Assembly: GCA_963674965.2 (NCBI GenBank)
Contig: CAXXFL010000007.1
Span: 1-64,000 of the forward strand
Origin: a bacterium
GTDB taxonomy: Bacteria > RBG-13-61-14 > DATKZS01
Direction of reading: 5' to 3'
Length of the DNA: 64,000 nt
The number at the start of each line of letters is the position of its first letter. Positions within the stretch are counted from its first letter, which is position 1. Shown here piece by piece: positions 5,004 through 11,056 of the stretch. The notes beneath the pieces are model-generated. The model did not search any database and was not told the origin of the DNA. It saw nothing but the letters and a program-made list of their open reading frames with translations. The position numbers and the translations under genes were made by a program.

Positions 5004-6173
5004 TTACCCCGACTTCTTTTTGTAAAGAGGCGACATATCGCGAAGCCTCTGTATTATCGGGGGCAGGGCCTCGAAAACCTTCTCCACGTCGGCCTCGGTA
5101 TTGTCCTTGCCAAGAGTGAAGAGAAGAGAACCCTGGGCGTCCGCGTGGTCCATGCCCATGGCCAGCATAACGTGGCTGACCTTGAGGCTCCTCGAGATGC
5201 AGGCCGAACCCGAGGCGATGGCGACGCCCGCCATGTCCATGAAAAGAAGCACCGACTCGCCCTCGATAAACTGGGCGCCAACGCTCACGTTGCCCGGCAG
5301 CCTCTTCTCGGGATGGCCGAACTCGAGCAGGTGGTCGATCCTCTCCAGGAGGCCCGACTTGAGTTTCTTGCCCAGGGCCTCGAGCTTCACTCTCCTGTTC
5401 TCCATCTCCTTCATGGCCGTTTCGGCCGCCACGCCCATGCCCACGATGGCCGGAACGTTCTCGGTACCCGCCCTTTTGCCCTTCTCCTGGATGCCTCCGT
5501 CCAGAAGCGGCCTCACCGAGACGCCCTTCCGAACGTAAAGCGCGCCCGCCCCTTTAGGGCCGTAGAACATGTTGGCGGAAAGGGACAGGAGGTCAACGTT
5601 CATTTGCTTAACGTTAATGTGCACGGCCCCCACCGAGTCGACCGCGTCCGTGTGAAAGGGGATGCCGCGCTCGGAGGTGATCTTGCCTATTTCCGCGATG
5701 GGCTGTATGGTTCCCACCTCGGGGTTGGCGTGCTGGATGGACACGAGTATGGTCTTGTCGGTGATGGCCTTTTTCACCTCCTCGGGATCGACCATGCCGT
5801 ACTTGTCCACCGGTACCTGGGTAACCTCGAACCCGAGCTTTTCCATGACCTTGATGGTGTGCATAATGGAAAAATGCTCGATCGGGGTCGTGATGATATG
5901 GTCGCCCTTGCTACGGCGTGCAAAAGGCACTCCTTTAAAGGCAAAGTTATTGGACTCGGTGCCGCAGGACGTGAATACTATCTCATCCGGGTTCGCGCCA
6001 ATCAGAGCGGCCACCTTCTCGCGGGACTCGTTGATGGCGTTCTCCGCCTCTTCCCCAAAGCCGTGTATTGACGAGGGGTTACCGAAGTGCTCCTTGAAAA
6101 AGGGCATCATGGCCTCGAGGGCCTCCGGCAAAAGCGGCGTACCCGCGATGTGGTCCATGTAAATCTTATCCAT
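5004..6173 (-). CDS. iscS: Cysteine desulfurase IscS/NifS
   Basis: FGNPSSIH, SCGTESNN, RAGTENVP and SGSAC motifs. The usual SxHK motif with the PLP lysine reads SANM here. Confidence 0.88.
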   Translation of the reverse strand: MDKIYMDHIAGTPLLPEALEAMMPFFKEHFGNPSSIHGFGEEAENAINESREKVAALIGANPDEIVFTSCGTESNNFAFKGVPFARRSKGDHIITTPIEHFSIMHTIKVMEKLGFEVTQVPVDKYGMVDPEEVKKAITDKTILVSIQHANPEVGTIQPIAEIGKITSERGIPFHTDAVDSVGAVHINVKQMNVDLLSLSANMFYGPKGAGALYVRKGVSVRPLLDGGIQEKGKRAGTENVPAIVGMGVAAETAMKEMENRRVKLEALGKKLKSGLLERIDHLLEFGHPEKRLPGNVSVGAQFIEGESVLLFMDMAGVAIASGSACISRSLKVSHVMLAMGMDHADAQGSLLFTLGKDNTEADVEKVFEALPPIIQRLRDMSPLYKKKSG

Positions 6174-6215
6174 CAGTATCTCCTTCCCTACATTAGATCG
6201 TAGCCGTATTATGAG

Positions 6216-6244
6216 AATATAAGGCCGGATACCATAAATGGCAA
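6216..6244 (-). promoter_or_regulatory. sigma70-like promoter of iscSU
   Basis: Minus strand TTGCCA-17 bp-TATATT. Confidence 0.5.
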
Positions 6245-6380
6245 GCCGATGATTTCACAAAAATTTTGAGGCGGCCCGATTATCGCCGCATATGGGGGTT
6301 TTCATAAAGAAAGGGCCTCGAAAGACCGCGCTGATCAATTCCACCCCTCACCGGAAATGACGCCCTCCCGTCGAATTTTG

Positions 6381-6409
6381 TTGAAAAATCCCACCCGCCG
6401 TGTTATATT
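6381..6409 (+). promoter_or_regulatory. sigma70-like promoter of tRNA-Lys
   Basis: TTGAAA-17 bp-TATATT with an extended -10 TG. Confidence 0.6.
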
Positions 6410-6471
6410 TAAACAATACGGGAACCGCGAGCGCGGTTCCTTTCTATTTACCGGCCTTTCGCCGGCTCAAA

Positions 6472-6548
6472 GGGCCGTTAGCTCAGTCTGGTAGAGCACC
6501 GGACTTTTAATCCGTTGGTCCGGGGTTCGAATCCCCGACGGCCCGCCA
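6472..6548 (+). tRNA. tRNA-Lys(UUU)
   Basis: GGGCCGT acceptor stem, D-arm GCTCAGTCTGGTAGAGC, anticodon loop CTTTTAA, T-loop GGTTCGAATCC, encoded CCA. Confidence 0.97.
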
Positions 6549-6663
6549 ACATCTTCAAGAAAAATTCTTTTAAATTCAGGCCTTTCAACGAAGGGGCGGT
6601 CCAACCCCCAAGGGGACGCGTCCGCTCAAAAACCCCTTTTTCCGGCCGTTTTTTCAATTTTTC

Positions 6664-6683
6664 TGTCACGTTTTTGTCACGTT
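6664..6683. repeat. Direct repeat TGTCACGTT x2, 11-bp period
   Basis: Copies at 6664-6672 and 6675-6683, just downstream of the tRNA. Confidence 0.6.
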
Positions 6684-6747
6684 ACGATACAGGATTGCAT
6701 ATTTACGGGGGCTTTTGGGTCCCAAAGGAGATGGTATGAATGAAGAG

Positions 6748-6958
6748 TTTTGAGGTGGTAAATACTTCAACTAGGTTAGGAATGATCTATTGGAGTAGGC
6801 GGGTCGTGGGCTGGATCGTTTTCGTGAGGCTTATGACCTCGTAAAGGAGATTAGTCAGCCCCGCGACTGGAGCGCCACCGTAAGGCTAGACCTTGTATAG
6901 GAGTTTGGCGGCCCCTCAAAGCGTGTCTACTCCGACCTTAGATCAAATTTATTTCTAG
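6748..6958 (+). ncRNA. Predicted IS110 bridge RNA, copy 1
   Basis: 5' hairpin 6750-6770. Outer stem 6783-6800/6925-6945 encloses two hairpins whose internal loops match the target and donor sites. Confidence 0.8.
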
Positions 6959-6972
6959 GGAGGAGTAAGGAA

Positions 6973-7989
6973 ATGGGAAGGTACATTGGAATCGATCTGC
7001 ACAGGAATTGTTTCACCTCTTGCGTCCTGGCCGAGAACGGACGGAACTATCTCAAGGACTGGCGTCTCGAGGATTTGGAGAAGTTTTGCTCGACGCTTCG
7101 CGAGTCCGACGAGATCGCGGTTGAGGTCACGGGCAACGTCCGCCTTTTTTACGACGCCGTTCGCGGCCTCGTTTCCCGCGTCGTGGTTGTCAACCCTCGC
7201 CAGTTCAAGGTCATCAGCGAGTCGGTCAACAAAACGGACGGCAACGACGCCAGACGCCTTGCCCTGTTTTTGTCCAAGGGCCTTTTGCCGGAGGTGAGGA
7301 TGCCGAACAAGGAACACGCTCAGGTTAAAAGCCTCACTCAAAGCCGGGACAAGCTGGTGAAGCTTCGCACGGCCTTGAAGAACAAGATCAACAACATCTG
7401 CTCGGCCCACGGCATCAACCTGAAGAAGGAATATCTTTCCAGCGAGAAGGGCCTTGAGACGGTGCAGGAGATACCTTTCGACCCCATGGTCAAGACCGAG
7501 GTCCGCGTCCTGGTGGAGCAGATTCGGGGCTTGAACGCCGGGGTCAAGGAGCTTGAGGCCGCCATCAAGGACTCGGGCAATCAGCTTCCCGGTCACAAGA
7601 ATTTGAAGAGCATAAAGGGTATCGGGGACCTTGGCTCGGCCATACTTTTGTCGGTGATCGTTGACGTCAAGGACTTCCCCGACGAGGGCAAGCTGGCCTC
7701 CTACTTCGGCATCGTCCCCCGGGTTAGCAACTCGAACGAGACCAGCCGCTCGGGCCGGATCACGAAGCGGGGCAACAAACTCGGCCGCACTACCCTGGTC
7801 CAATGCGCCCTCATCGCCAAGCGTTACAGCCCTTATTTGTCGAGCTTCTACGAGCGTATCAAGGCCAGGCGCGGCGCGGGCAAGGCCATCATCGCACTGG
7901 CTCGCAAATTTTTGAAGATCATTTACATCACTTTACAGGAAAACTTGATTTGGGAGGACTTCCCGAACGGAGTAATAGCGAAAGGCTGA
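6973..7989 (+). CDS. IS110-family recombinase/transposase
   Basis: RuvC-like DEDD (GIDLH, AVEVT, KTDGND) and C-terminal Tnp domain (ASYFGIVP..SNS..ITKRGN). Confidence 0.95.
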   Translation: MGRYIGIDLHRNCFTSCVLAENGRNYLKDWRLEDLEKFCSTLRESDEIAVEVTGNVRLFYDAVRGLVSRVVVVNPRQFKVISESVNKTDGNDARRLALFLSKGLLPEVRMPNKEHAQVKSLTQSRDKLVKLRTALKNKINNICSAHGINLKKEYLSSEKGLETVQEIPFDPMVKTEVRVLVEQIRGLNAGVKELEAAIKDSGNQLPGHKNLKSIKGIGDLGSAILLSVIVDVKDFPDEGKLASYFGIVPRVSNSNETSRSGRITKRGNKLGRTTLVQCALIAKRYSPYLSSFYERIKARRGAGKAIIALARKFLKIIYITLQENLIWEDFPNGVIAKG

Positions 7990-8025
7990 GTTTGTAAAAT
8001 AATTCAGCTAATTTAAAAGGTTGGG

Positions 8026-8054
8026 TAGACAACCATCATAGGAGATGGTATGAA
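8026..8054 (+). promoter_or_regulatory. RE-LE junction promoter of IS110
   Basis: TAGACA (right end of copy 1)-17 bp-TATGAA (left end of copy 2), with an extended -10 TG. Confidence 0.6.
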
Positions 8055-8061
8055 TGAAGAG

Positions 8062-8272
8062 TTTTGAGGTGGTAAATACTTCAACTAGGTTAGGAATGAT
8101 CTATTGGAGTAGGCGGGTCGTGGGCTGGATCGTTTTCGTGAGGCTTATGACCTCGTAAAGGAGATTAGTCAGCCCCGCGACTGGAGCGCCACCGTAAGGC
8201 TAGACCTTGTATAGGAGTTTGGCGGCCCCTCAAAGCGTGTCTACTCCGACCTTAGATCAAATTTATTTCTAG
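8062..8272 (+). ncRNA. Predicted IS110 bridge RNA, copy 2
   Basis: Same sequence as copy 1, directly downstream of the junction promoter. Confidence 0.8.
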
Positions 8273-8286
8273 GGAGGAGTAAGGAA

Positions 8287-9303
8287 ATGGGAAGGTACAT
8301 TGGAATCGATCTGCACAGGAATTGTTTCACCTCTTGCGTCCTGGCCGAGAACGGACGGAACTATCTCAAGGACTGGCGTCTCGAGGATTTGGAGAAGTTT
8401 TGCTCGACGCTTCGCGAGTCCGACGAGATCGCGGTTGAGGTCACGGGCAACGTCCGCCTTTTTTACGACGCCGTTCGCGGCCTCGTTTCCCGCGTCGTGG
8501 TTGTCAACCCTCGCCAGTTCAAGGTCATCAGCGAGTCGGTCAACAAAACGGACGGCAACGACGCCAGACGCCTTGCCCTGTTTTTGTCCAAGGGCCTTTT
8601 GCCGGAGGTGAGGATGCCGAACAAGGAACACGCTCAGGTTAAAAGCCTCACTCAAAGCCGGGACAAGCTGGTGAAGCTTCGCACGGCCTTGAAGAACAAG
8701 ATCAACAACATCTGCTCGGCCCACGGCATCAACCTGAAGAAGGAATATCTTTCCAGCGAGAAGGGCCTTGAGACGGTGCAGGAGATACCTTTCGACCCCA
8801 TGGTCAAGACCGAGGTCCGCGTCCTGGTGGAGCAGATTCGGGGCTTGAACGCCGGGGTCAAGGAGCTTGAGGCCGCCATCAAGGACTCGGGCAATCAGCT
8901 TCCCGGTCACAAGAATTTGAAGAGCATAAAGGGTATCGGGGACCTTGGCTCGGCCATACTTTTGTCGGTGATCGTTGACGTCAAGGACTTCCCCGACGAG
9001 GGCAAGCTGGCCTCCTACTTCGGCATCGTCCCCCGGGTTAGCAACTCGAACGAGACCAGCCGCTCGGGCCGGATCACGAAGCGGGGCAACAAACTCGGCC
9101 GCACTACCCTGGTCCAATGCGCCCTCATCGCCAAGCGTTACAGCCCTTATTTGTCGAGCTTCTACGAGCGTATCAAGGCCAGGCGCGGCGCGGGCAAGGC
9201 CATCATCGCGCTGGCTCGCAAATTTTTGAAGATCATTTACATCACTTTACAGGAAAACTTGATTTGGGAGGACTTCCCGAACGGAGTAATAGCGAAAGGC
9301 TGA
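8287..9303 (+). CDS. IS110-family recombinase/transposase (copy 2)
   Basis: Protein identical to 6973..7989. Confidence 0.95.
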   Translation: MGRYIGIDLHRNCFTSCVLAENGRNYLKDWRLEDLEKFCSTLRESDEIAVEVTGNVRLFYDAVRGLVSRVVVVNPRQFKVISESVNKTDGNDARRLALFLSKGLLPEVRMPNKEHAQVKSLTQSRDKLVKLRTALKNKINNICSAHGINLKKEYLSSEKGLETVQEIPFDPMVKTEVRVLVEQIRGLNAGVKELEAAIKDSGNQLPGHKNLKSIKGIGDLGSAILLSVIVDVKDFPDEGKLASYFGIVPRVSNSNETSRSGRITKRGNKLGRTTLVQCALIAKRYSPYLSSFYERIKARRGAGKAIIALARKFLKIIYITLQENLIWEDFPNGVIAKG

Positions 9304-9363
9304 GTTTGTAAAATAATTCAGCTAATTTAAAAGGTTGGGTAGACAACCATCATAGGAGATGAT

Positions 9364-9759
9364 ATGAATACCGGCACTAAATCGCTACTGTTCGGGACTC
9401 ATCAGTTCCTGCTCCATCCTCTTTTCGTGATTGCCGCCTGGAGGCGGCTTTACGGCGACTGGCCGGACGGGCCGACTCTTGTCGCCATCTTTGTCCATGA
9501 CTGGGGTTACTGGGGATGCGAGAAGATGGACGATAAGAAGGGAGAGGAGCACCCGATCAAGGGGGCCAAGATCGTCGAGCGGCTTTTTCCCGACCGGGGC
9601 CTGGGCGAGTTGACTCGGTATCACTCGCGGTTCCTGGCCAGGCGGGAGGGAGCCAGGGTGTCGCGGATGTGTCTGCCCGACAATTATGGCGTGGCCATGT
9701 ATCCCTGCCGGCTATCGACCAAAACCCCGTTAACTCCTCTGTTGCCTTGTTTCGCGTAA
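9364..9759 (+). CDS. HD-like hypothetical protein, possibly phage-derived and 3'-truncated
   Basis: H..H, VHDWGY, EEHP and YHS His pattern. SD AGGAG upstream. C-terminus looks degenerate. Confidence 0.6.
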   Translation: MNTGTKSLLFGTHQFLLHPLFVIAAWRRLYGDWPDGPTLVAIFVHDWGYWGCEKMDDKKGEEHPIKGAKIVERLFPDRGLGELTRYHSRFLARREGARVSRMCLPDNYGVAMYPCRLSTKTPLTPLLPCFA

Positions 9760-9928
9760 GAAGAGATGGAGCTCATGATCTCGAAAGCCGCGAGGATTAT
9801 AATCAAATAAAGGAGGATGAAGGAAAAGTCCCCCACATATCCACGAATCTGTGGAAATAATGCCCGCCTTTTCAAAGGTTCATCACCCATCTTGTATGCT
9901 CCTCGCCTTCAAGCCTTGCGCCGATCTT

Positions 9929-11056
9929 CTACACCCCCCACGATATATCGTCGCTTATTCCAGCGCGCTCCTTAATCAGCCTGGCCACGTTGAATTCTTC
10001 GGGACCAATGAACTCATTTTCAGGTACATGTTTTAATTTGCCGCTGATTTTTATCCAGACCATCTGGCTCCCGTCCGTGAAGAAGGCGGTTATTTCCGAG
10101 GTGGAGTATGATTTGGTCTTGCCCCGGAGGCGGAAGATGTCCGATCTTGTAGATATCTCATCTGGAGATACCTTGACGGTCTCCTTGCCCGCCAAAGCAT
10201 AAGATATATGGTAAATGCCCAAATATAATAACGTGACTCCCGGCGCGCCCAATACAATAATGAATATGCCTGGTCCATAATCGGGATATGTCTCGGCGAA
10301 AAGCGCCGCGCAAAAAGCAACCCAACCAATACCAAACAGGAGACCTAATGAATAGGATAAAATATCCAGCGGTTGCCCTTTTTGAGTTATCGTGATCCTC
10401 GCCTCGTTCCCGTAGTCCGCTACTTCCACCTTGTCTTTGAATTTCCCGATCAACCGAACGAGGGGGCGAAGCGGGATGAAATACTTTTCGTCACTCGCGT
10501 CCGGCGCGCGGTCCGCTATTCCCGTTCTTTGCTTTATGGCGCGGGCTATCTTTATGGCCTCTTCGAAATCAAGGTCCGGCCCGAATAGTCTTGCTTTTCC
10601 CTTTACGGGAAAGAGACGCAACGGTCCGGAAAGATTGTGAGGGGAAGATTGGTTAATAAAGAACAGGCCCAGGAACGATAGCTCCTCGCCCATCCAGGTC
10701 ATGGTCTTTTTATAGAGCAAGGACCGGTTTAAGATACTCAACTTATCTCTCGTCGTCTCGATCGTCTGGCTTCTCGAGAAGTAATGGACGATGAAACCTA
10801 TCGAGGAAACGATCGCAATTATAGATACCGCGCCCGCGATAAAAAGCACCCGGTCTTCATAGACGTTCACCTGGTATAAAGAACCTAGAGTCAAAATAAT
10901 AATCAGAAAGATGCAAAGATGCGCCATGAAAAAGCAAGAAAGCTCGATCGCAAGAGTAAGCAAAGGCAAAAGCCCGATGCTTTTCGGCCTTACCCTGATC
11001 ACCAGTCTCTCGCCGTCGTCCTCGACGCGGGCCTTTGTTTTTGGATTGCTTTTCAT
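9929..11056 (-). CDS. Hypothetical membrane protein, two tandem (2-TM + beta-rich) modules
   Basis: Two hydrophobic pairs, each followed by a similar soluble segment ending FGPDL..A.KIA..IKQRTGI / FIGPEE..VA..IKERAGI. Confidence 0.65.
   Translation of the reverse strand: MKSNPKTKARVEDDGERLVIRVRPKSIGLLPLLTLAIELSCFFMAHLCIFLIIILTLGSLYQVNVYEDRVLFIAGAVSIIAIVSSIGFIVHYFSRSQTIETTRDKLSILNRSLLYKKTMTWMGEELSFLGLFFINQSSPHNLSGPLRLFPVKGKARLFGPDLDFEEAIKIARAIKQRTGIADRAPDASDEKYFIPLRPLVRLIGKFKDKVEVADYGNEARITITQKGQPLDILSYSLGLLFGIGWVAFCAALFAETYPDYGPGIFIIVLGAPGVTLLYLGIYHISYALAGKETVKVSPDEISTRSDIFRLRGKTKSYSTSEITAFFTDGSQMVWIKISGKLKHVPENEFIGPEEFNVARLIKERAGISDDISWGV

Follow-up and report, generated by a model that had tools for sequence, protein, structure and literature searches.

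Head-to-tail dimer of an IS110-family element in a ribosome-binding site, with a possible origin by bridge RNA-guided re-insertion

The first 64,000 nucleotides of contig 7 (CAXXFL010000007.1, GenBank assembly GCA_963674965.2, forward strand; referred to here as the window) of a bacterial genome of 6.5 Mb in 7 contigs contain two complete copies of an insertion sequence (IS) of the IS110 family, abutting head to tail on the same strand with no spacer between them. The pair occupies the ribosome-binding site of a host gene that starts at position 9364. Both alleles that distinguish the two units exist at other copies of the element in this genome, so the dimer joins two lineages, and the target sequence restored under the dimer is nearly identical to the donor sequence formed between the units. 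Because the native right half of the target is itself 10/11 identical to the left end of the element, both outer junctions of the dimer are one base off a target. We propose, as a possibility to which we give slightly less than even weight, that the dimer arose when the recombinase of the element and its bridge RNA integrated a second circle into a hybrid junction of a resident copy, in a half-match event.

The dimer and its three junctions

Each unit was taken to begin with the five bases AGGAG, and the window was compared with itself base by base at an offset of 1314. Identity spans 6723-8055, with mismatches only at 6725 (A/T), 7896 (A/G) and 8048 (G/A). The mismatches at 6725 and 8048 fall in the flanking half-sites, outside the internal unit differences, which leaves unit position 1171 (A7896/G9210) as the sole internal difference between the units (1313/1314 identical). 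This single-nucleotide polymorphism (SNP) is synonymous, both 338-aa open reading frames (ORFs) giving an identical translation. The locus therefore contains a tandem module in the sense of at least two adjacent, complete, same-strand copies of at least 95% identity. A third AGGAG directly follows copy 2, at 9354-9358. The coordinates of these and the other features are collected in Table 1.

The restored target under the dimer reads AAAGGAG ATGATATGAAT, and the native site as one stretch is AAAGGAGATGATATGAAT. The internal junction between the right end of copy 1 and the left end of copy 2 (RE-LE junction) reads ATAGGAG ATGGTATGAAT, is 16/18 identical to the restored target and has the sequence expected on an excised circle. 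The left and right junctions, AAAGGAGATGGTATGAAT and ATAGGAGATGATATGAAT, each differ from the target by one mismatch; in the right junction this is a T for A beside AGGAG, and the same junction is also one base off the donor junction. The preliminary description of this stretch, made from the sequence by itself, had reported two abutting 1314-bp copies, a target and a donor differing at 2 of 18 nt, junctions each one mismatch from the target, and a synonymous SNP at A7896/G9210; the offset-1314 identity, the 18-mers and the ORF translations bear out all four.

Table 1. Features of the dimer locus in the window (LT and RT, left and right target halves; LD and RD, left and right donor halves)
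Feature	Position	Strand	Remarks
tRNA-Lys (UUU)	6472..6545	+	Rfam tRNA 72 bits; ARAGORN tRNA-Lys; upstream of insertion locus
Left flank 'X'	6556..6725	+	ends in left target half ...GGTCCCAA
Left junction, LT-core-RD	6724..6741	+	AAAGGAG + ATGGTATGAAT
IS copy 1	6726..8039	+	1314 bp; A at unit position 1171 (allele of 7/10 copies)
Bridge RNA core, copy 1	6792..6933	+	consensus fold of 34 aligned upstream regions
Bridge RNA closing stem, 9 bp	6792-6800 with 6925-6933	+	
Target-binding loop	6803-6867	+	5' strand GAUCGUUUUC 6814-6823; 3' strand AAAGGAGAUUAG 6843-6854, left target guide
Donor-binding loop	6873-6911	+	CCGU 6878-6881 opposite right-donor ATGG; GUAUAGGAGUU 6895-6905, left donor guide
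Recombinase gene, copy 1	6973..7989	+	338 aa; DEDD/RuvC-like domain + Tnp domain
Internal RE-LE junction (donor site), LD-core-RD	8026..8055	+	..TAGACAACCATCAT AGGAG ATGGTATGAAT
IS copy 2	8040..9353	+	1314 bp; G at unit position 1171 (allele of 3/10 copies)
Bridge RNA core, copy 2	8106-8247	+	
Recombinase gene, copy 2	8287-9303	+	
Right junction, LD-core-RT	9348..9369	+	CATCAT AGGAG ATGATATGAAT
Downstream host gene	9364..9759	+	131 aa; no Pfam or NCBIfam match

The genome carries 10 full copies of the element over 9 loci, plus one 46-nt left-end fragment. Unit position 1171 is A in seven copies and G in three, the latter being copy 2 of the dimer and the copies at C6:284240-285553 and C1:1430995-1432308 (C, contig). 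With two lineages joined in the dimer, slippage, unequal sister exchange and naive doubling by the assembler are all disfavored, and a second incoming copy fits better than in-situ duplication or simple assembly doubling. The argument in the preliminary description that the SNP speaks against a simple assembly duplication thus gains from finding the G allele in two other copies. The survey of other genomic copies for tandems that had been suggested there was also carried out, and one of the nine loci proved dimeric.

Across the internal junction (8026-8054), TAGACA is followed after 17 nt by TATGAA with an upstream TG, an arrangement that a scan for the sigma-70 consensus did not list. Throughout the clade of the element both promoter-like halves are kept, and the RE-LE junction looks like a putative promoter. 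At the RE-LE junction of IS621, a promoter is reported to be rebuilt (PMC11208158). The right junction (9340-9368) shows the same TAGACA-17 nt-TATGAA arrangement, a result of the likeness between the native right flank and the element's left end; there it is aimed into the host gene, with the -10-like hexamer overlapping the start codon.

Bridge RNA guides and target class

The recombinase combines a DEDD (RuvC-like) domain at its N-terminus with a Tnp domain at its C-terminus, the architecture of the IS110 family, with matches to PF01548 (DEDD_Tnp_IS110; E 2.5e-15), PF02371 (Transposase_20; E 1.6e-21) and the NCBIfam model NF033542, 'IS110 family RNA-guided transposase' (221.5 bits versus a cut-off of 140). 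Residues D8, E51, D89, D92 and S254, which we take to be catalytic from the numbering of IS621, are invariant across 34 homologues. No inverted-repeat pair links the two element ends in the inverted-repeat list for 5500-10500, and donor and target have a short core in common, the element having neither terminal inverted repeats nor a classical target duplication. The domain and NCBIfam models thus uphold the initial assignment to IS110, and a bridge RNA with guides is supported as well.

Upstream of the recombinase gene lie 247 non-coding nt. The consensus fold of this region comprises a variable 5' hairpin, a closing stem and two stem-loops with internal loops, the first of which is large. 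In the named structure 96.9% of 1,154 cells are paired, with compensatory changes in 6 of the 34 pairs (34 sequences); none of 500 shuffles scored as high, and slid partners reached at most 45.7%. Rfam gave no match to a bridge-RNA family, only tRNA. As in a bridge RNA, this upstream RNA has two internal loops, one matching the target and the other matching the donor. The 3' strand of loop 1, GUAAAGGAGAUUAG, has the top-strand sense of the left target (AAAGGAG plus AT), and the 3' strand of loop 2, GUAUAGGAGUU (AUAGGAG), has the top-strand sense of the left donor (ATAGGAG); the two left guides differ by one base. The left target guide AAAGGAGAU (6843-6851), which corresponds to the left target, AGGAG and AT, matches the left junction 9/9. 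The top-strand sense of both guides agrees with IS621, where pairing of the left guides is with the bottom strand (PMC11208158). Within loop 2, CC(G/A)U between the stems is complementary to ATGG, with which the left end begins; the CCGU pairing has one G.T.

The assignment of the left target guide was examined across metagenomic relatives. At 48 of the 56 distinct loci compared, guide 7-mer and left flank of the same locus are identical, and guides other than AAAGGAG (TAAGGAG, GAAGGAG, CAAGGAG, TGAGGAG and CACAGAG) match their own flank in 17 of 18 cases. When flanks were shuffled among loci, the mean number of matches was 23 and the maximum 32, with 0 of 2000 shuffles reaching 48. This covariation is decisive for the left target guide.

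Insertion sites were compared with one another and with a baseline of 2,039 AAAGGAG sites, obtained genome-wide after in-silico removal of the IS copies. At 9/9 loci the left junction reads ..AA-AGGAG-ATGGTATGAAT, and the right end reads ..CATCAT-AGGAG followed by host sequence. All nine sites read AA-AGGAG-R, with AGGAG once at each element end; AGGAG being common to donor and target, the crossover lies within it. All nine are AAAGGAG Shine-Dalgarno sequences, and the element is inserted in the orientation of the gene. An ATG lies 5-8 nt past AGGAG at 8/9 occupied sites, compared with an ATG 3-9 nt past the site in 435 of the 2,039 background sites (21%; binomial p = 3e-5). This preference for ATG may reflect either recognition or the survival of harmless insertions. 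The right end of the element (..CATCATAGGAG) restores the AGGAG of the ribosome-binding site, and at the dimer, the AGGAG from the element end rebuilds a Shine-Dalgarno sequence 5 nt ahead of ATG 9364. The pattern of AAGGAG, spacer and ATG recurs in the metagenomic right flanks.

The 5' strand of the target loop was considered in several registers. The preliminary description had placed AUCGU (6815-6819) opposite ATGAT, with a wobble at the left junction. In that register nine consecutive positions face GGAGATGAT with a score of 7.5, the left junction scores 7.0, and the other eight occupied sites score 3.5-5.5; it was rejected as the right target guide for want of enrichment among occupied sites, so that the proposed wobble loses its footing. 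An alternative register, three bases off, sets the 3'-most C opposite the last G of AGGAG and reads RRRRYGAT, including the AT of the start codon. It was picked post hoc among 7 tried, and its support is confined to this genome, where it scores 8.0 at the C4 site (GAAGCGAT; the occupied site being AAAGGAGGAAGCGATG) and 7.0 at each of the sites C1a (GAAGCCAT) and C6b (AGATTGAT). Scores of at least 7 thus occur at 3/9 occupied sites versus 70/2,039 background sites (p = 0.003), and at 3/8 versus 21/435 within the ATG class (p = 0.005). In this register, the reading of the bridge RNA may extend over the spacer and into the start codon as far as its AT. The dimer target scores 4.0 and the left junction 3.5 (of 10), the genome mean being 4.28, and 6/9 occupied sites score at most 5 of 10 against the 5' loop strand.

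Further observations concern the same strand. It is complementary to G+GAAGCGAT (C4:194082), G+GAAGCCAT (C1:1174518) and G+AGATTGAT (C6:284234), and in many relatives it begins with CAU, the complement of ATG. At individual metagenomic loci its pairing with the right flank is striking, reaching for instance 9.5 of 10 in L068.

The site under the dimer stands out by its likeness to the donor, which greatly exceeds what chance would give. It is the only natural site of the baseline in which 10/11 bases after AGGAG match the element start ATGGTATGAAT; four sites match at 9, and the lone 11/11 site among the 2,039 is the 46-nt element fragment on contig 6. The chance that the top-ranked site is among the 9 occupied ones is 9/2038 = 0.004, and a donor-like right half seems to attract the element. 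Insertions have been found enriched at sites matching one donor arm (10.64898/2026.08.31.748434; 10.64898/2026.08.14.744561), and such an attraction fits this published enrichment.

The right half of the target is native to the host gene. The start of the encoded protein, MNTGTKSLLFG, aligns from position 1 with 12 relatives beginning M-x-x-GTKS, and this conserved MNTGTKS start indicates that ATGAAT is the gene's own. On the same alignment, we rejected the possibility that the donor-like right flank is the remnant of a third, truncated copy. The protein has 131 aa versus ~150-230 aa in its relatives and diverges from them after ~residue 113; judging from this alignment, the gene looks frameshifted or truncated at its C-terminus. 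Members of its family share a conserved HDWGYWG motif, and neither Pfam nor NCBIfam has a model for them.

A paralogue of the left flank, 78% identical, lies at C6:1074199-1074365 behind a tRNA-Leu gene (blastn, alignment and tRNA scan). It is followed, at C6:1074153-1074198 (L011) on the minus strand, by a solo fragment 100% identical to the first 46 nt of the element; the remaining element and the original right flank are gone from this locus. By its sequence, this copy is one truncated after insertion. Since the fragment follows a 78% paralogue of the left flank past a tRNA gene, this type of site has been hit twice.

Neither the other 4 genomes of the family nor the other 12 of the phylum carry the element; the best finds there were a 74% match over 90 nt and a protein 29% identical. 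A search of genome contigs returned one distant relative at 29% identity, and across the named genomes searched, the recombinase protein is ~29% or less identical to anything. The downstream host gene is likewise absent from those family and phylum genomes, so no orthologous empty site was found there. Among 8,000 metagenomic proteins scored, 4,599 are relatives at E <=1e-20, the best non-self identity being 84-85%. A set of 80 metagenomic loci retrieved at 65-85% identity has in common the left end ATGGTATGAAT, the right end ..GAGTAGACAAnCATCATAGGAG and left flanks finishing in (R)AAGGAG. The element is a member of a widespread, unnamed metagenomic clade of the IS110 group. In its closest relative (L044, 85% protein identity), the left end is split after the first 13 nt by a ~190-bp insertion (L044:88-300) bordered by an 8-bp direct repeat, ATGAATGA, suggesting a small unrelated mobile element. 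The donor-like AAAGGAGATGGTATGAATGA of that locus was rejected as a native target, as it is the locus's own left end split by this insertion.

Origin of the dimer

In the route that we tentatively prefer, a resident copy would first have occupied the ribosome-binding site of the gene at 9364, and a circle bearing the other SNP allele would have been excised from another locus. The recombinase of the element, with its bridge RNA, would then have integrated this circle into a hybrid junction of the resident copy. The left junction would be the likelier entry, retaining the whole AAAGGAGAU sequence read by the left guide (9/9), and as a substrate it would be on par with most real sites, whose match to the other strand is no better than average. 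Indeed, that 6/9 real sites score at most 5 against the other strand suggests that a left half-match is enough in vivo, which in turn would make every left junction a credible target. It is thus plausible from the guide matches that the junctions serve as targets of the element's own bridge RNA, the left junction having a left-guide match of 9/9 and an other-strand score of 3.5 in the supported register, or 7.0 in the register first proposed. As all nine left junctions are identical, with a full guide match, re-entry on the left needs no special site, nor the 16/18 identity of target and donor; the feature special to the dimer locus is its right junction, one base from the target and one from the donor junction.

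Between its units, the product would hold a donor site (LD-core-RD) permanently fixed in the chromosome, and the same enzyme could resolve the internal site with the left junction into a monomer and a circle. Because this donor site lies beside a target-like left junction, one unit should be excisable as a circle; on this analysis, the dimer should be short-lived, a transient rather than the seed of a stable array. These considerations change the picture first given for this locus, where the dimer was explained by self-targeting through the 16/18 identity. The part of it that stands is that the junctions are near-targets, to which the 9/9 match of the left guide can be added; what does not stand is the appeal to this site in particular, as the left junctions are the same at all nine loci. 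The suggestion that the element builds tandem arrays is weakened, since the same recombinase would resolve them and the experimental tandem repeats of CazIS110-1 all reverted (10.1101/2025.10.25.684509).

Relatives of the element carry partial duplications of their own ends. A 45-nt left-end unit is duplicated at an internal GAAGAAG in L056 (272-361), a 19-nt right-end unit is duplicated after an internal GGAG in L110 (~2522-2560) and L045 (contig end), and a 17-nt right-end unit is present in four copies in L074 (~2213-2290). As read from their sequences, these apparent partial self-insertions lend indirect support to recombination at target-like sequences in or beside resident copies. In a bolder form of the same idea, which we consider unlikely, target and donor specificities would nearly duplicate one another, the element's left end would mimic the spacer from ribosome-binding site to start codon, and donor-like sites would be hot spots that regenerate the target and stack copies, making this the first natural case in which donor mimicry governs site choice as well as tandem growth.

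A number of observations weigh against integration of a circle by the recombinase. Only 1/9 sites is dimeric although all left junctions are equally target-like, and with one dimer in nine loci we cannot tell a site effect from chance. Entry by the recombinase and integration of a circle by RecA give the same three junctions, with either SNP order. The AUCGU register is not enriched, a score of at least 7 being reached at 1/9 occupied sites versus 164/2,039 (p = 0.53), and covariation between the 5' strand and the right flank was not significant over 46 metagenomic loci (5.89 versus 5.71 +/- 0.13; 94/1000 shuffles as high). No complete RE-LE junction was found in the 80 metagenomic loci, whose short-read contigs could not hold one; all 45 fuzzy RE-LE matches in these loci are ordinary left junctions, and a 20-nt junction had no match in viral contigs. 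Lastly, no read or contig spans the dimer, the k-mer contigs being too short to do so, and k-mer depth cannot separate 9 from 10 copies.

The last two points bear on whether the dimer exists at all, and we hold it very probable that it is real in cells. The read data consist of k-mer contigs only, from runs X1 and X2 of one sample and X3 of a second, in which the IS collapses to a single 1303-bp k-mer contig at a depth of 159-178 versus 8.7-16.7 for the flanks; the copy estimate is ~10 in X2 (159.2 versus 14.2-16.7) and 12-20 in X1. An assembly artefact, in which a single-copy locus was given a false second unit by reads of excised circles or of copies at other loci, would draw support from the lack of a spanning read or contig among the k-mer contigs examined, from the identity of the internal junction with a circle junction, and from the look of the sample, which, with contigs in the millions for each run and the organism at ~9-17x, resembles an enrichment or a community. 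We nevertheless find such an artefact improbable. Long reads, for which 2.6 kb is an easy span, are implied by the assembly of 6.5 Mb into 7 contigs and by its resolution of ten repeats of 1.3 kb; the SNP between the units matches genuine alleles at other loci; and, weakly, the depth ratio of ~10.1 in X2 suits 10 copies at least as well as 9. A genome-wide k-mer scan (pairs with at least 150 shared 25-mers) detected no second abutting kb-scale repeat in the assembly, and as the dimer is the only one, there is no sign of a systematic habit of the assembler. It is the contiguous assembly, the allele difference between the units and the lack of any other such repeat that favor a real dimer. The only other period-filling repeat in the scan is a tandem repeat at C5 ~348840, with a period of 418 bp and 437 shared 25-mers.

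If the dimer is real, host homologous recombination could also have produced it, either by a RecA crossover between a circle, with its 1.3 kb of perfect homology, and the resident copy, or by unequal sister exchange followed by gene conversion of the SNP. The observed LT-RD, LD-RD, LD-RT structure, with either allele order, is the exact product of a single crossover; nine resident copies offer 1.3 kb of homology apiece; a single dimer in nine loci suits a rare event that is not site specific; and excision of CazIS110-1 was ~2-fold lower without RecA (10.1101/2025.10.25.684509). What homology leaves unexplained is the position of the dimer on the most donor-like of 2,039 sites, if this is beyond coincidence. 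Nor would it be expected to yield the offset partial duplications in L056, L110, L045 and L074, which are bounded by target-like or core-like motifs, and plain unequal exchange would give identical units, whereas the alleles here differ and occur in other copies. On balance we regard homologous recombination as rather unlikely. The recombinase might, alternatively, have made the dimer in one step, through insertion of a dimeric circle into an empty site or an exchange between the right and left junctions of sister chromosomes. Recognition of the donor arm by itself (DBL-DBL) drives recombination in IS621 (10.64898/2026.08.31.748434), and here the left halves of donor and target are one base apart, making donor sites near-targets; a site readable as both target and donor could favor such reactions. 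An exchange between sisters would, however, yield identical units, unlike the two alleles seen, and dimeric circles are without direct evidence, so that we judge a one-step origin more improbable still than an assembly artefact.

Comparison with known systems

In IS621, it is the 5' strand of the loops that carries the left guides, and target and donor share only a CT core. In the present element, by contrast, the left guides of the same sense lie on the 3' strand of each loop, and target and donor share AGGAG and flanks, with one base differing on the left. The two elements have in common a two-domain recombinase and a left-end bridge RNA with target and donor loops (PMC11208160, PMC11208158), as well as left guides of top-strand sense (PMC11208158). 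IS621 also undergoes half-match insertion, a one-sided match being sufficient (10.64898/2026.08.31.748434).

Tandem duplications of complete IS110 modules have been reported (Fig. 4C, n = 437; 10.64898/2026.08.14.744561), and tandem cargo repeats of CazIS110-1 arose in 3/96 colonies (10.1101/2025.10.25.684509). These are likewise adjacent same-strand copies with an RE-LE junction between them, ascribed to repeated use of the resident recombination system. The dimer described here differs from the tandem modules in that its left junction retains the whole left half read by the guide and both junctions are one base from the target. The preprint on the tandem modules argues that insertion does not regenerate a target (10.64898/2026.08.14.744561). 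IS110-family modules are also found in tandem in Pseudomonas putida, where ISPpu9/MITEPpu9 move via several kinds of circles (PMC12288879). Those tandems are of gene-less modules (ssr9), whereas the present ones are two complete autonomous copies. Dimers of the (IS21)2, (IS30)2 and IS911 type have an internal junction equal to the circle junction, can assemble a promoter there and can act as hyper-reactive donors. They are the work of DDE transposases on abutted inverted repeats, whereas an RNA-guided DEDD/Ser recombinase acts here on an element lacking terminal inverted repeats, so that the likeness is one of analogy only.

In target class, the closest parallel is IS900, an IS110-family element of M. 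avium subsp. paratuberculosis, whose motif CATGNNNNNNTCTCCTT is the reverse complement of AAGGAGA-N6-CATG (PMC8141618). The likeness is by target class, Shine-Dalgarno sequence, spacer and start codon: in the present genome, too, insertion is right after AAGGAG, a few bases before the start codon and in the gene's orientation. IS900 belongs to another clade in another host phylum, and the passages of PMC8141618 used here mention no dimer; they do describe, at the beginning of some copies, repeats of short units as well as deletions of 44 bp, which recall the 45-46-nt left-end fragments of the present clade. This clade offers a clean natural case of a bridge RNA reading translation-initiation regions and mending the ribosome-binding site that it splits, and this repair may account for its spread, as the host would bear little burden.

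Tandem IS110 modules, half-match recombination, tandem cargo repeats, tandem IS110-derived mini-elements and IS900-type targeting of initiation regions are thus already reported, and as it stands the dimer adds one well-dissected example to these phenomena. Should its junctions prove to be active targets, the element could be amplified in place by an RNA-guided recombinase, and a chromosomal donor site and perhaps an assembled promoter would be kept, which would bear on the expansion of IS110 loci and on the risk of off-target events and concatemers with bridge-recombinase editors. The twist hypothesized here is a likeness of target and donor so close that a target is almost restored at the junctions, contrary to the argument of the tandem-module preprint (10.64898/2026.08.14.744561).

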